DNA from: a virus | Taxonomy: Duplodnaviria > Heunggongvirae > Uroviricota > Caudoviricetes | Reading direction: 5' to 3' (one strand) | DNA: 8,461 bases | Virus record (IMG/VR): IMGVR_UViG_2734482553_000012 | In this document: positions 3,083 to 8,461 of the stretch, piece after piece | Numbering within the stretch: position 1 is the first letter of the stretch | Layout of the letters: every line of letters starts with the position of its first letter | Program-made: the position numbers and the translations under genes | Notes under the pieces: generated by a model | Database searches by the model: none | Seen by the model: the letters and a program-made list of their open reading frames with translations, nothing else | Told to the model about the DNA's origin: nothing

Positions 3083-3893
3083 ATGCGTAAAGTTTGTGCA
3101 GCCATTTTGTCCGCAGCCATTTGCCTGGCCGTATCCGGTGCGCCTGCATGGGCGTCTGAACATCAGTCCACGCTGAGCGCGGGGTATCTTCATGCCCGGA
3201 CCAACGTTCCCGGCAGTGATGATCTGAACGGGATTAACGTGAAATACCGTTATGAGTTTACGGATACGCTGGGGCTGGTGACGTCATTCAGCTATGCAGG
3301 AGACAAGAATCGCCAGCTGACCCGTTACAGCGATACCCGCTGGCATGAAGATTCCGTGCGTAACCGCTGGTTCAGCGTGATGGCGGGGCCGTCTGTGCGC
3401 GTGAATGAATGGTTCAGCGCGTATGCGATGGCGGGTGTGGCTTACAGCCGTGTGTCGACTTTCTCCGGGGATTATCTCCGCGTAACTGACAACAAGGGGA
3501 AAACGCACGACGTGCTGACCGGAAGTGATGACGGTCGCCACAGCAACACGTCTCTGGCGTGGGGAGCTGGCGTGCAGTTTAACCCGACCGAATCCGTGGC
3601 CATTGATATTGCTTATGAAGGCTCCGGCAGTGGCGACTGGCGCACTGACGGTTTCATCGTGGGTGNNNNNNNNNNNNNNNNNNNNNNNNNNNNNNNNNNN
3701 NNNNNNNNNNNNNNNNNNNNNNNNNNNNNNNNNNNNNNNNNNNNNNNNNNNNNNNNNNNNNNNNNNNNNNNNNNNNNNNNNNNNNNNNNNNNNNNNNNNN
3801 NNNNNNNNNNNNNNNNNNNNNNNNNNNNNNNNNNNNNNNNNNNNNNNNNNNNNNNNNGACGGTTTCATCGTGGGTGTCGGTTATAAATTCTGA
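3083..3893 (+). CDS. lom: Lom outer-membrane protein (Ail/Lom/PagC/OmpX family of 8-stranded beta-barrels); reading frame as given is broken near the 3' end by an N-run plus a 19-bp duplication
   Basis: Seen: ATG at 3083 preceded by GAGAGG (3072-3077); N-terminus MRKVCAAILSAAICLAVSGAPAWA-SEHQ looks like a signal peptide. From memory: the visible translation (HQSTLSAGYLHARTNVPGSDDLNGINVKYRYEFTDTLGLVTSFSYAGDKNRQLTRYSDTRWHEDSVRNRWFSVMAGPSVRVNEWFSAYAMAGVAYSRV...DWRTDGFIVG) matches lambda Lom almost residue for residue. Seen: the last codons GVGYKF-TGA (stop 3891-3893) sit in a different positional frame (start mod 3 = 0, versus 2 for the start codon) after the N-run. Confidence 0.85.
3647..3876. 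repeat. 19-bp perfect direct repeat GACGGTTTCATCGTGGGTG (3647-3665 and 3858-3876) flanking a 192-nt N-run inside lom
   Basis: Seen: the identical 19-mer immediately precedes and follows the N-run. N-run plus one repeat copy is 211 nt (not a multiple of 3), which accounts for the lom frameshift. Removing those 211 nt would restore an uninterrupted lom ending ...DGFIVGVGYKF. Confidence 0.9.
3666..3857. other. Run of 192 N (masked or unresolved sequence) inside lom
   Basis: Seen: uninterrupted n characters bounded by the 19-bp direct repeat. Confidence 0.99.
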
Positions 3894-3947: not shown

Positions 3948-3957
3948 TGGGGTGAAT

Positions 3958-6900
3958 ATGGCAGTAAAGATTTCAGGTGTACTGAAAGACGGCACAGGAA
4001 AACCGGTACAGAACTGCACAATCCAGCTGAAAGCAAAACGTAACAGCACCACGGTGGTGGTGAACACGCTGGCCTCAGAAAATCCGGATGAAGCCGGGCG
4101 TTACAGCATGGACGTTGAGTACGGTCAGTACAGCGTTATTCTGTTGGTGGAAGGATTCCCGCCGTCACATGCCGGGACCATCACCGTGTATGAAGATTCC
4201 CGACCCGGTACGCTGAATGATTTTCTCGGTGCCATGACGGAGGATGATGCCCGTCCGGAGGCACTGCGCCGTTTTGAGCTGATGGTGGAAGAGGTGGCGC
4301 GTAACGCGTCCGCGGTGGCACAGAACACGGCAGCCGCGAAGAAATCAGCCAGCGATGCCAGCACATCAGCCCGTGAGGCGGCAACCCATGCGACTGATGC
4401 TGCAGATTCAGCACGTGCAGCCAGCACGTCAGCCGGACAGGCCGCTTCGTCGGCTCAGTCAGCGTCTTCCAGCGCAGGAACGGCATCAACAAAGGCCACT
4501 GAAGCCTCAAAAAGTGCTGCCGCTGCAGAGTCCTCAAAAAGCGCGGCGGCTACCAGTGCCGGTGCGGCGAAAACGTTAGAAACGAATGCGGCAGCGTCAC
4601 AACAATCAGCAGCCACTTCTGCATCCACCGCGACCACGAAAGCGTCAGAAGCTGCCACCTCAGCCCGGGATGCGTCGGCTTCAAAAGAGGCGGCAAAATC
4701 ATCAGAAACGAACGCATCATCAAGCGCCAGTAGCGCAGCTTCCTCGGCGACGGCGGCTGCAAATTCTGCGAAGGCGGCCAAAACGTCCGAGACGAACGCC
4801 AGGTCTTCTGAAACGGCAGCGGGACAGAGTGCCTCAGCTGCGGCAGGCTCAAAAACAGCGGCTGCGTCGTCTGCCAGCGCCGCGTCAACAAGTGCCGGGC
4901 AGGCCTCAGCCAGTGCCACCGCCGCCGGAAAATCGGCAGAAAGCGCCGCATCATCCGCTTCAACAGCCACAACGAAGGCTGGCGAAGCCACTGAGCAGGC
5001 CACGGCAGCAGCGAGGTCAGCTTCCGCAGCGAAGACATCCGAAACGAACGCGAAAGCGTCGGAAACCCGTGCAGAATCCTCAAAAACGGCTGCCGCATCG
5101 TCCGCCAGTTCGGCGGCGTCATCGGCATCATCGGCGTCTGCTTCAAAAGATGAGGCGACCAGACAGGCGTCAGCAGCGAAGGGCAGCGCCACGACGGCAT
5201 CCACGAAGGCGACAGAGGCTGCTGGTAGTGCGACGGCAGCAGCTCAGAGCAAAAGTACGGCGGAATCTGCAGCAACGCGCGCTGAGACAGCGGCAAAACG
5301 GGCAGAGGATATTGCATCCGCCGTGGCGCTTGAGGATGCGAGCACGACGAAAAAGGGGATAGTACAGCTCAGTAGTGCGACTAACAGCACTTCCGAGTCA
5401 CTGGCGGCAACACCAAAAGCCGTTAAGGCCGCGTATGACCTGGCTAACGGGAAATACACCGCACAGGATGCAACGACAGCACAGAAAGGGATAATCCAGC
5501 TAAGCAGCGCGACCAACAGCACGTCTGAAACGCTGGCGGCAACGCCAAAGGCAGTAAAAGCAGCCAATGACAATGCTGAGAAACGTCTGCAGAAAGATCA
5601 GAACGGTGCGGATATCCCTGGCAAAGACACCTTTACGAAAAATATTGGTGCCTGCCGTGCCTTCGGTGGGTCAGTAAGCACAACAACAGGAAACTGGACG
5701 ACTGCACAGTTTATCGAGTGGCTGGATTCTCAGGGAGCATTTAACCATCCATACTGGATGTGCAAGGGTTCCTGGTCTTATGGCAATAATAAAATCATTA
5801 CTGATACTGGCTGCGGTAATATTCATCTCGCCGGAGCTGTCATTGAAGTAATGGGGATAAAGTCAGCGATGACGATCCGCATTACCACTCCGACCACATC
5901 CAGCGGTGGCGGAACAACCAACGCCCAGTTTACCTATATTAATCACGGAACAGATTATTCACCTGGCTGGCGAAGGGACTATAACTCCAGAAATAAGCCA
6001 ACGGCATCAGAGATCGGGGCGCTACCGTCAGGTGGAACAGCAGTATCATCAGTTAATCTGGCTTCAAAAGGTCGGGTAGCCGCGCTGACAGACAATACGC
6101 AGGGGGCAGCAGGTCTTGAGTTATACGAGGTGTATAACAACGGATATCCAACAGCGTATGGAAATATCATTCACCTGAAAGGGATGACAGCCGTTGGCGA
6201 AGGTGAGTTACTCATCGGCTGGAGTGGTACAAGCGGTGCTCATGCTCCGGCATTTATTCGTTCACGACGGGATACGACCGACGCAAACTGGTCGCCGTGG
6301 GCGCAGCTTTACACCTCGGCTCATCCTCCTGCAGAGTTTTATCCAGTCGGTGCACCAATCCCGTGGCCATCAGATACCGTTCCGTCTGGTTATGCCCTGA
6401 TGCAGGGGCAGACTTTTGACAAATCTGCTTACCCGAAACTTGCAGCCGCTTATCCGTCAGGCGTGATCCCTGATATGCGTGGCTGGACGATTAAGGGCAA
6501 GCCCGCCAGTGGTCGTGCCGTATTGTCTCAGGAACAGGATGGCATTAAATCGCACACCCACAGCGCCAGCGCATCCAGTACGGATTTGGGGACGAAAACC
6601 ACATCGTCGTTTGATTACGGCACTAAATCCACGAATAACACCGGGGCGCATACGCACAGTCTGAGCGGCTCTACAAGTTCAGCTGGGGCCCACCAACATA
6701 GTCAGACTGGGCCCAGAACGAATAGCGGGAGTCAACCTACTGGAATGTTTCCGGCAGGGAGTACTCAAGTTAGCGGGACTAATCAGGTTGGTATCAGTGG
6801 CTCATTAACCAGTGGCACCTCCCAATGGGTAGGTAAATCATCTTCAGAAGGAAACCATACACACTCACTGTCCGGCACAGCAGCATCTGCGGGTGCACAC

Positions 6901-7041
6901 GCGCATACTGTCGGTATTGGTGCTCATACGCACTCTGTTGCGATTGGTTCACATGGACACACCATCACCGTTAACGCTGCTGGTAACGCGGAAAACACCG
7001 TCAAAAACATCGCATTTAACTATATTGTGAGGCTCGCATAA
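3958..7041 (+). CDS. stf: Side tail fibre protein (Stf-like), about 1027 aa, mosaic: lambda-Stf-like N-terminus, expanded Ala/Ser-rich shaft, tandem tail-fibre repeats, a non-lambda central module and a lambda-Stf-like His-rich C-terminal tip
   Basis: Seen: frame-1 ORF ending at TAA 7039-7041; the ORF track starts at GTG 3952, but ATG 3958 gives [26 protein letters not shown], which matches the lambda Stf N-terminus from memory; GGGGTG lies just upstream. From memory: the C-terminal ~230 residues (GAPIPWPSD...[34 protein letters not shown]...[31 protein letters not shown]) match lambda Stf. Choice of start codon is inference. Confidence 0.92.
4290..5340 (+). repeat. Ala/Ser/Thr-rich low-complexity, internally repetitive region of stf (about 350 codons)
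   Basis: Seen: translation is dominated by A, S, T, K, E with recurring motifs ([44 protein letters not shown]) and the DNA is GC-rich and self-similar. Both antisense frames and an alternative sense frame stay open across it (ORF-track entries 4455..5204 -, 4550..5317 -, 4586..5362 +), a typical low-complexity artefact. Confidence 0.85.
5353..5571 (+). repeat. Tandem duplication of a phage tail-fibre repeat motif inside stf (period 132 nt / 44 aa)
   Basis: Seen: [29 protein letters not shown] (5353-5439) and [29 protein letters not shown] (5485-5571) are nearly identical at the protein level, while the DNA copies differ at many synonymous positions (e.g. CAGCTCAGTAGTGCGACTAACAGCACTTCC vs CAGCTAAGCAGCGCGACCAACAGCACGTCT). 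The motif resembles the conserved phage tail-fibre repeat found in T-even and lambdoid fibres (recollection). Confidence 0.85.
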
Positions 7042-7622
7042 TGGCATTCAGAATGAGTGAACAAGCACGGACCATAAAAATTTATAACCTGCTGGCCGGA
7101 ACTAATGAATTTATTGGTGAAGGTGACGCATATATTCCGCCTCATACAGGTCTGCCTGCAAACAGTACCGATATTGCACCGCCAGATATTCCGGCTGGTT
7201 TCGTGGCTGTTTTCAACAGTGATGAGTCATCGTGGCATCTCGTTGAAGATCATCGGGGTAAAACGGTTTATGACGTGGCTTCCGGCGACGCGTTATTTAT
7301 TTCTGAACTCGGCTCATTACCGGAAAATGTCACCTGGTTATCCCCGGAAGGGGAGTTTCAGAAGTGGAACGGCACAGCCTGGGTGAAGGATACGGAAGCA
7401 GAAAAACTGTTCCGGATCCGGGAGGCGGAAGAAACAAAAAACAGCCTGATGCAGGTAGCCAGTGAGCATATAGCGCCGCTTCAGGATGCTGTGGATCTGG
7501 AGATCGCAACGGAGAAAGAAACCTTGTTGCTGGAAGCTTGGAAAAAGTATCGGGTGTTGCTGAACCGTGTTGATACATCAACTGCACCGGATATTGAATG
7601 GCCAGTAGCACCTATAGGGTAA
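7041..7622 (+). CDS. tfa: Tail fibre assembly protein (Tfa chaperone)
   Basis: Seen: ORF from ATG 7041-7043 to TAA 7620-7622; its start overlaps the stf stop by one base (TAATG at 7039-7043). From memory: translation [62 protein letters not shown]...[26 protein letters not shown] matches lambda Tfa very closely. Confidence 0.93.
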
Positions 7623-7705
7623 ATTCGTAATGATTACCTAAATACGTTATTCTTTTGTTAAAAAAGTGATTTTGCTATAGGTAGGGAGTATGTTCTTGGA
7701 TTAAG

Positions 7706-7738
7706 AATAAAAAATCGCCATGAAAGAGCTTCATGGCG
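7706..7738 (-). terminator. Putative rho-independent terminator readable on the minus strand
   Basis: Seen: perfect 9-bp inverted repeat CGCCATGAA (7716-7724) / TTCATGGCG (7730-7738) with a 5-nt loop; on the + strand it is preceded by AATAAAAAAT (7706-7715), so on the minus strand the hairpin is followed by ATTTTTTATT. No T-run follows it on the + strand. Confidence 0.45.
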
Positions 7739-8068
7739 AGTACATAAACGTACAAAATGTGATGAAAGTAGAGTGGCGTAAGCCACTATATTAAGATATG
7801 ACAATAGCGAAGAAAAGTAAATAACATTTTATGGACGTTTAATTGTTAATTATAAAAACTAGAGTGCCCGATATTGTTTATCTTGCTTTAAAATAATGTA
7901 CTCAAACCAAATTTTTGAGCTAAAAGCTCAAATAATATAAATGCAATAATAATGTTTAATAAGACAATTAGCTTGCTTTGTATTTTCATTTCGGAATACT
8001 GTTAAGTAACTTTGATGACCCTAACAATAGATCGGAATTTTCTTAGAGTCAATGGTCACTGTTTTTGC

Positions 8069-8098
8069 TTGCAAAGCAAATGTTTTGGTGGTTATAAG
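8069..8098 (+). promoter_or_regulatory. Sigma70-like promoter candidate (TTGCAA - 18 bp - TATAAG)
   Basis: Seen: TTGCAA at 8069-8074 and TATAAG at 8093-8098, separated by 18 bp, in AT-rich DNA. Pattern match only; AT-rich sequence produces many such matches by chance. Confidence 0.2.
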
Positions 8099-8371
8099 TC
8101 GTCTTAATATAGTCACGCATGCAACTTGTTCCATGCGGAGATTAAAGATTGGAATATAACGCGAAGATGGAATTAAATTACATTTGCAATAATTAATTTA
8201 TTATTACTCAATAATTACCGATATTATTATTGTAAATTAATCATTAGAATGCAAAAAGAAATGTAACGGCAAAATAAGAGGACGATAGCTGAGAAAAAAG
8301 CGTGCTTTCCCAATCTGGGGCAAATCACGTCTGAATGACACCTGAAAACAGGTGGTAGCCTCAAGAAGGCT

Positions 8372-8394
8372 GGTGATGCTGCCAACTTACTGAT
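8372..8394 (+). repeat. IS1 left terminal inverted repeat (IRL)
   Basis: From memory: GGTGATGCTGCCAACTTACTGAT is the canonical 23-bp IS1 terminal inverted repeat. The 9 bp just outside it (8363-8371, AAGAAGGCT) would be the target-site duplication if this is a simple insertion; the other copy would lie beyond the window. Confidence 0.85.
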
Positions 8395-8426
8395 TTAGTG
8401 TATGATGGTGTTTTTGAGGTGCTCCA

Positions 8427-8461
8427 GTGGCTTCTGTTTCTATCAGCTGTCCCTCCTGTTC
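8427..8461 (+). CDS. insA: IS1 InsA (transposition regulator), 5'-partial fragment with GTG start
   Basis: Seen: GTG at 8427 followed by GCT TCT GTT TCT ATC AGC TGT CCC TCC TGT, translating to (M)ASVSISCPSC. From memory: this is the InsA N-terminus, and insA is known to start with GTG. Runs off the window end. Confidence 0.85.
   Translation, partial: MASVSISCPSC

Follow-up and report, generated by a model that had tools for sequence, protein, structure and literature searches.

YncL of Escherichia coli K-12 (b4598, 31 residues) is located in the inner membrane and its expression is linked to stress (heat shock, sigma-S) (PMC12542507, PMC5437024). When produced, YncL depolarises the membrane (PMC12542507), and depolarisation together with condensation of the nucleoid has been shown recently. 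The Salmonella yncL transcript, which is sigma-S dependent, was first catalogued as the sRNA STnc1110 (PMC5437024); it encodes STM14_1932, and both genes illustrate how a short monocistronic transcript can be mistaken for a non-coding RNA. Two other kinds of described system are relevant here. The morons of lambdoid phages (lom and bor of lambda, sitABCD and AraC-like regulators in prophages) are stand-alone units located between the last tail gene and att, with promoter-like hexamers and a terminator of their own. The Hfq-dependent sRNAs Esr41, PasA-D, AgvB/AsxR and MicC are built in the order 5′ hairpin, U/A-rich single strand and terminator with U-run, and the prophage sRNAs of pathogenic E. 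coli are intergenic in lambdoid prophages and belong to the strain-level accessory DNA.

The window analysed here, a stretch of 8,461 nt, has the gene order of the tail end of a lambdoid prophage: J, interrupted by three N-masked gaps, lom, stf (3952-7041), tfa, an AT-rich stretch and the left end of IS1. The gene tfa (7041-7622, plus strand) is an open reading frame (ORF) for the tail fibre assembly protein, annotated likewise in three related prophages (L001, L002 and L010), and is the last gene of the late operon. The stretch from its stop to the left end of IS1 (8372, GGTGATGCTGCC...), that is 7623-8371, has a G+C content of 31.5% versus ~50% in the tail genes (21-37% across 7623-8286), and an earlier note based on the letters of the window had rightly described it as AT-rich DNA between tfa and IS1. 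The features listed in that note, a minus-strand hairpin, a palindrome, a CGCATG repeat and a pair of sigma70-like hexamers, are all present. Its statement that the stretch holds no credible ORF does not stand.

We consider it probable that 7623-8200 is a compact moron-type accessory cassette on the strand opposite to the late operon, consisting of a promoter, a YncL-family gene, a 3′ RNA module and a terminator. As in lambdoid morons, the unit stands alone between the last tail gene and att, carries promoter-like hexamers and its own terminator, is low in G+C (30% versus ~50% in the flanking genes), and has neighbours that are swapped between relatives. It differs from them in being much smaller (~0.4 kb), in encoding a 33-residue peptide and perhaps an RNA, and in being constant and fixed to the 3′ end of tfa, unlike the variable moron cargo past it. 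As with YncL and STnc1110, its predicted transcript would be short, monocistronic and easily taken for a non-coding RNA.

The small gene and its candidate promoter

The unannotated gene is located at 7989-7888 on the minus strand and encodes a hydrophobic small protein of 33 residues, MKIQSKLIVLLNIIIAFILFELLAQKFGLSTLF, predicted to be a membrane protein of the YncL family. The peptide matches the YncL profile NCBIfam NF000537 over positions 1-28 of 30 (E 1.3e-5, 25 bits); the curated cut-off of this profile is 35 bits, so the peptide is a homologue or paralogue of YncL and not an 'equivalog' in the sense of NCBI. An ungapped alignment of 28 residues with YncL of K-12 (MNVSSRTVVLINFFAAVGLFTLISMRFGWFI) has a BLOSUM62 score of 60, while shuffles of the same composition score 20.3 +/- 4.1 (z 9.7) and none of 5000 reaches the score of the alignment. 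Both proteins have a single hydrophobic span and share M1, S5, K/R6, V9-L10, N12, A16, L19-F20, L22 and K/R26-F27-G28. The two genes differ in their setting: yncL of K-12 lies at the chromosomal patD-ortT locus and the peptide gene is prophage-borne, there is no DNA similarity between the loci, and the K-12 gene lacks the long conserved 3′ region of the prophage gene. Moreover, a Shine-Dalgarno sequence precedes yncL of K-12 (AAAAGGUGG), whereas none is found upstream of the ATG of the prophage gene (UAUUCCGAAAUG).

Three lineages could be aligned, with up to ~25% overall divergence from the window and 35-45% in spacers, and in all of them the frame, start and stop of the ORF are kept despite indels in the flanks. 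Between the window and the L007 lineage the ORF has 11 synonymous and 7 non-synonymous changes (dN/dS 0.09, binomial P = 1.5e-4), and between the window and the L010 lineage 5 and 1 (dN/dS 0.04), statistics that rest on few independent changes since just three sequence lineages exist. Control values of dN/dS, from the other two reading frames, were 0.37-7. Among 84 copies of the ORF collected across genomes, phages, IMG/VR and metagenomes, 82 are intact, and the remaining two, on short low-coverage contigs, carry a frameshift in an A-run. Judged from its sequence, the 33-codon ORF is a conserved gene under purifying selection, homologous to YncL. The other ORFs of at least 20 residues in 7623-8200 either are interrupted in the L007 lineage or have non-synonymous changes alone, and a 37-residue ORF annotated in phage PhiR70_1 was rejected by the same test.

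No RefSeq or phage record that was inspected annotates the gene, and the inspected E. coli records have no feature beneath the cassette stretch 7623-8200. A phmmer search of the peptide against 1.84 billion representatives returned nothing but the peptide itself and its frameshift variant, tblastn against phages gave no match, presumably owing to low-complexity masking, and a literature search by sequence, peptide and RNA core found no relevant match. This paralogue of YncL, carried by a prophage at the usual position of morons, is new and unannotated, although the kind of system is already known. If it acts as YncL does, the peptide would enter the inner membrane of the lysogen and modulate membrane potential and stress state; YncL-type peptides would in that case belong to the equipment with which temperate phages supply their hosts.

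A sigma-70 promoter candidate for the small gene, with the hexamers TTGACT-17-TATTGT, was located at 8052-8024 on the minus strand by consensus match only; the start of transcription would fall at ~8017, giving a 5′ untranslated region of ~28 nt. Its hexamers are kept in all three lineages, the −35 element TTGACT being invariant and the −10 element reading TATTGT or TATCGT, and the identity of the hexamer region is 86-100% across lineages and 86-90% in the most divergent one. Promoter-like sites in the region are not above chance (5 found versus 3.9 +/- 1.8 expected). A sigma-S-like extended −10 element (TGACTATATT, 8115-8106) was considered as an alternative promoter and weighted lower, since its final T reads C in the L009/L010 lineage.

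Upstream of the candidate promoter lies a conserved block (8053-8170; 76% identity in the L007 lineage, 89-91% in the others) in which every ORF is broken in the L007 lineage. It contains two of the features that had attracted attention before. The hexamer pair TTGCAA-17-TTATAA (8069-8097) is present but fails the criteria of the promoter scanner, and the inverted repeat CGCATG/CATGCG (8116-8137) is likewise present but its pairing is only partly kept in divergent lineages. The palindrome CACCTG-AAAA-CAGGTG (8339-8354) is present too, within the attachment-arm remnant described below, and has one arm mutated in APEC O1. For neither the palindrome nor the CGCATG repeat is there evidence of anything beyond chance or passive sequence. 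The block is followed by a very AT-rich junction (8171-8286, 20.7% G+C) where the shared cassette ends, at 8168 in some relatives and at 8200 in others; the part from 8201 to 8286 is restricted to the lambda-attB lineage.

The terminator and the conserved 3′ RNA element

The minus strand carries an intrinsic terminator at 7739-7706, formed by a perfect 10-bp stem (7739-7715; 11 pairs by the count of the terminator scanner) with arms TCGCCATGAA/TTCATGGCGA, and followed by the U-run TTTTTTATT at 7714-7706. The hairpin had been placed at 7706-7738 in the earlier note, correctly within 1 nt, and among the features listed there it alone stands out statistically. Two terminator-like sites were found in the region versus 0.8 +/- 1.0 expected; the second and weaker one (7914-7932) was discarded, being located inside the ORF and having its stem broken in the L007 lineage (GAGC to AAAC). 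The stem of the terminator is invariant in all lineages, changes being limited to the loop or top pair and to the U-run. Between the stop of tfa and the terminator there is a spacer (7623-7705) that is poorly conserved, with 65-67% identity in the divergent lineage. That an RNA ends at this hairpin, as had been suggested, is very likely, but the description of such an RNA as antisense does not fit, no annotated gene being located opposite. Such an RNA would be the final part of the transcript of the small gene, a separate sRNA, or both.

The terminator is part of a block of ~90 nt (7706-7795, minus strand), the best conserved of the region, that has the appearance of an sRNA. Its 5′ hairpin, AGUGGC-UUAC-GCCACU, has 6 bp (7787-7772) and is followed by a single strand of 32 nt, CUACUUUCAUCAYAUUUUGUACGUUUAUGUAC (7771-7740), invariant except for one Y, which leads into the terminator. 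The predicted fold has an energy of −27.1 kcal/mol (z = −7.3). Compared with the most divergent lineage, the window is 91-92% identical in this core, 82% in 7796-7829, 80% in the ORF, 74% in the 5′ untranslated region and 56-57% in the spacer 7830-7887, where the L007 lineage has 8 gap columns. The 3′ untranslated spacer (7796-7887) is variable, its indels falling in 7830-7887, and the conservation of the core reaches ~7833. The extension may correspond to a promoter (TTTACT-17-TAnnTT, start of transcription at ~7787), whose hexamers are conserved, or to a longer 5′ seed.

A plus-strand ORF of 24 residues overlapping the core accumulates only non-synonymous changes, and the conservation of the core is therefore not protein-coding. 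Two substitutions occurred in the stems of the core and pairing was kept both times (G-C to G-U and A-U to G-U); no pair shows a double compensatory change among the aligned lineages, and there is no covariation. The high identity of the 3′ core could also reflect a recombination patch rather than selection. The covariance-model search proposed in the earlier note found nothing in 7623-8371 at the Rfam gathering threshold, permissive searches of 7000-8461 and 7650-8200 were also run, and in the whole window only IS009, inside tfa, passes the gathering threshold. MicC (22.8 of 90 bits, E 0.5) and Esr41 (15.6 of 102 bits, E 2.5) were chance-level hits. A preprint places IS009 next to PasB, for which reason PasB was suspected here; PasB, a prophage sRNA of EPEC, is, nevertheless, an unrelated sequence at another position, between the tail assembly protein (gpI) and gpJ in E2348/69 (NC_011601, 1466261-1466343), and its probe sequence AATCCCGCAGTGATCGCGGAGCT has no counterpart in the region.

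The architecture of the core is that of an Hfq-type sRNA or a 3′UTR-derived sRNA, with a Rho-independent terminator and U-run placed after a conserved, predicted single-stranded seed, and its role as an sRNA is that of an unproven candidate. It shares the order of its elements with Esr41, PasA-D, AgvB/AsxR and MicC, while having no significant match to MicC or Esr41 in sequence or structure, and, like the prophage sRNAs known from pathogenic E. coli, it lies between genes of a lambdoid prophage, in DNA that is accessory at the strain level. The cassette offers a specific candidate for an sRNA of prophages that would be new. A tentative proposal, possible though not the likelier outcome, is that the locus yields a dual-function prophage transcript, in which the YncL-like peptide would be combined with an Hfq-dependent 3′ sRNA (7706 to ~7790-7830) with a nearly invariant seed of 32 nt, representing an uncatalogued sRNA family linked to the tail-fibre recombination hotspot. 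If so, the sRNA would be the means by which lambdoid prophages, in Shigella as well as in ~15% of E. coli strains, rewire host gene expression.

The hairpin and core could instead be a terminator or insulator only, protecting the late operon against leftward transcription from cargo such as sitABCD or genes of the b region, with no sRNA being made. We regard this as rather unlikely. It is favoured by the orientation of sitABCD in L009 and L010, upstream of the cassette and in the same direction, by a terminator that is unidirectional on the minus strand, and by the candidate sRNA having neither covariation nor Rfam membership. On the other hand, termination alone leaves unexplained the near-invariant single strand of 32 nt and the second hairpin upstream of it, and in the lambda-attB lineage the adjacent AraC-like gene is on the plus strand, so that there is no upstream minus-strand operon to terminate.

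Distribution and interpretation of the cassette

The travelling unit extends from window position 7480, inside the 3′ end of tfa, to 8168 or 8200. Homology breakpoints fall at 7480, the 3′ end of tfa travelling with the downstream cassette. After tfa the unit is constant over ~550-580 bp, and the cargo past it differs between relatives, in agreement with the view of the earlier note that the slot after the tail-fibre genes is a cargo (moron) position. This cargo is a YdeO/GadX-like AraC regulator in L001, a prophage that E. coli TUM9757 carries at lambda attB, and in the deposited phages mEp332, ev099 and PhiR70_1, which are the close relatives without IS1; it is sitABCD in L007-L010, and in L006 the unit is followed by the ydfJ chromosomal junction. 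In the IS1-free relatives an unannotated gap of ~1.5 kb separates the stop of tfa from the plus-strand AraC-family gene, beyond which there are IS remnants and then int/att. The cassette remains beside the 3′ end of tfa even where tfa is truncated, alongside three different cargos. Additional 3′ fragments of tfa are found past the cassette in several relatives, which suggests that the 3′ end of tfa is a recombination anchor for cargo exchange.

Among 5426 complete E. coli genomes, 827-831 (~15%) contain the cassette, never on plasmids. It also occurs in the deposited genomes of four lambdoid phages, and the records of two of these (mEp332 and PhiR70_1) name E. coli as host. In ~600 genomes it belongs to a defective prophage located at ydfJ, where the tfa that precedes it is truncated (~96% identity), in sitABCD-carrying prophages it is 79-94% identical, and most copies are more than 95% identical. 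Neither the degenerate ORF pattern nor the RNA-core pattern had a match in representative genomes of 185,579 species, and the cassette is therefore strain-level accessory DNA. A scan of metagenomes yielded no lineage beyond the known three. The small gene is unannotated in the inspected records in spite of being part of a cassette present in about 830 of those complete genomes, which constitutes an annotation gap.

In the model that we propose for the cassette, the sigma-70-like promoter at 8052-8024 would drive a minus-strand transcript of ~310 nt encoding a single-pass membrane peptide of 33 residues of the YncL family (7989-7888). The transcript would cross the variable 3′ untranslated region and stop at the intrinsic terminator 7739-7706, which would also shield tfa from leftward transcription. 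Its last 80-125 nt would constitute a module of hairpin, single strand and terminator, conserved above the coding sequence, and this module would probably be released from the transcript, or separately transcribed, and act as a base-pairing sRNA. Beyond the cassette, 8201-8371 consists of junction DNA and a serU-type attachment-arm remnant cut by IS1, the DNA that in intact relatives leads to the AraC/YdeO-like regulator gene. The 3′ end of tfa and the cassette appear to form a fixed anchor beside which virulence-related cargo (sitABCD, an acid-resistance-type AraC regulator) is swapped. Should the cassette not be expressed, the finding shrinks to an ordinary mosaic junction.

The same elements could belong to a type I toxin-antitoxin system, in which translation of a membrane-toxin peptide would be restrained, either by a small RNA made from the conserved flanks or by a fold-back of its own long 3′ region. 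Such a system would account for a hydrophobic peptide of 33 residues lacking a Shine-Dalgarno sequence on a long structured transcript (z = −3.6), flanked on both sides by highly conserved non-coding blocks, and overproduction of YncL does depolarise membranes (PMC12542507). Pairing of the translation initiation region (TIR) with the 3′ region is somewhat above shuffles in two lineages (1.8% and 4.8% of the shuffles reach it) but at chance in the window (27%), and pairing of the single strand of the core with the TIR is not above shuffles either (74%), nor is that with yncL of K-12. Support for a hok-like 5′-3′ fold-back is inconsistent between lineages. Moreover, a conserved antisense promoter was not found, the plus-strand hexamers at 8069-8097 falling where the upstream block is least conserved in the L007 lineage, and YncL is described without a cognate antitoxin (PMC12542507, PMC5437024). 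We therefore consider the toxin-antitoxin interpretation improbable.

A region without function, either filler coated by H-NS or cargo in decay, with passive ORF and hairpins and a conservation due to recent ancestry and recombination, is very improbable: its 30% G+C is typical of H-NS targets, most copies are nearly identical, 8287-8371 is truly a remnant cut by IS1 and the palindromes are not conserved as such, but the ORF keeps its frame and stop between lineages whose flanks diverge by 20-45%, changes mainly synonymously (dN/dS 0.04-0.09, P = 1.5e-4) and encodes a homologue of a validated small protein, identity changes sharply from segment to segment (56% to 92%), and the presence of a gene is compatible with H-NS binding. 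As far as base composition goes, such binding would be compatible with every reading of the region. Decay of a cargo locus, one of the possibilities raised in the earlier note, applies to 8287-8371 but not to 7623-8200, which the comparison with relatives revealed as an intact unit with no gene loss.

Attachment-arm remnant and IS1 junction

Positions 8287-8371 are the left 85 bp of a block of 535 bp (L001 6665-7199) that forms the right arm of serU-integrated prophages and is here truncated by IS1. Right ends of prophages integrated at serU match the block at 96-99% identity, and its 8287-8371 part is common to prophage ends beside serU/zinT and other sites (93-100% identity). In L001, mEp332 and ev099 the block runs on into the last 62 nt of the tRNA-Ser gene serU, followed by 278 bp of E. 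coli chromosome, with 97% identity to the DNA next to serU in K-12; the serU end and these 278 bp are host DNA captured into the b region of the phage.

The left end of IS1 occupies 8372-8461 on the plus strand, the window ending inside the element, and aligns without interruption with positions 6750-6839 of L002 (E. coli 2009C-3133), which lie upstream of an annotated IS1A family transposase. The junction is identical in the window and in L002, the only relative that has it. At this junction L002 lacks 550 bp (L001 6750-7299) and has no target duplication, which is consistent with an IS1-associated deletion. With regard to the preference of IS1 for AT-rich targets mentioned in the earlier note, the junction sits in a piece of 48% G+C that adjoins DNA of 25% G+C.

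Probable host-derived DNA and the IS1 junction

The left end of IS1 occupies window positions 8372-8461, on the side where relatives carry an AraC-family regulator, and the window ends inside the element. Any such gene here would lie outside the window; in intact relatives it is reached past the AT-rich gap, and in L001, the prophage located at lambda attB in E. coli TUM9757, it extends over positions 7506-8249 and is 247 amino acids long. Its best matches are YdeO (E 1.9e-43) and GadX (E 4.3e-32), both under the family cut-offs, and phrog_1450 is also among them.

Beyond the site of the window's IS1, the b region of L001 contains, at positions 6860-7199, the last 62 nt of the tRNA-Ser gene serU together with 278 bp, the latter 97% identical to the K-12 chromosome adjoining serU. 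The same fragment and its 278 bp are present in phages mEp332 and ev099. Judged from the sequences, this segment looks like host DNA taken from a former serU integration site, and the route of capture looks like aberrant excision or recombination. The only inspected relative that shares the window's IS1 junction is that of E. coli 2009C-3133 (L002). Since 550 bp are missing there beyond the far side of IS1 and no target-site duplication is found at the element (L002 6750-7517 compared with L001 6750-7299), the alignment indicates an adjacent deletion mediated by IS1, which would have removed the serU fragment.

Variable cargo beyond the cassette

In four prophages (L007-L010) the sitABCD operon is placed upstream of the cassette and on the same, minus, strand, ending 235 bp from it in L009 and L010 and 1.1-2.3 kb from it in L007 and L008. 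With this arrangement, transcription running on out of sit could be a further source of transcripts crossing the YncL-family small gene and reaching the terminator.

Several relatives have additional fragments of the tfa 3' end, 73-77% identical to window 7506-7623, between the cassette and the variable cargo. They are located downstream of the cassette at 7327-7421 in L006, a relative with the cassette at the ydfJ chromosomal junction, at 4587-4686 and 5333-5421 in L007, and at 4542-4646 in L008. This recurrence suggests repeated use of the 3' end of tfa as a recombination anchor.

Reading frames and RNA models in the window

Three runs of N, at 530-793 (264 bases), 1319-1664 (346 bases) and 3666-3857 (192 bases), break up J and the lom/stf region, and ORF calls spanning them are unreliable. 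Antisense to the conserved RNA core, a plus-strand ORF of 24 codons (7720-7794) is open in every lineage. A coding role was rejected because its differences between lineages are non-synonymous; on this comparison, the frame is open owing to conservation of the other strand. The Rfam model IS009 matches the plus strand at 7384-7582 with 218 bits, against a gathering score of 117. As the match falls entirely in the tfa coding sequence (7041-7622), the model seems to describe a conserved portion of the tail fibre assembly gene and not an independent RNA.
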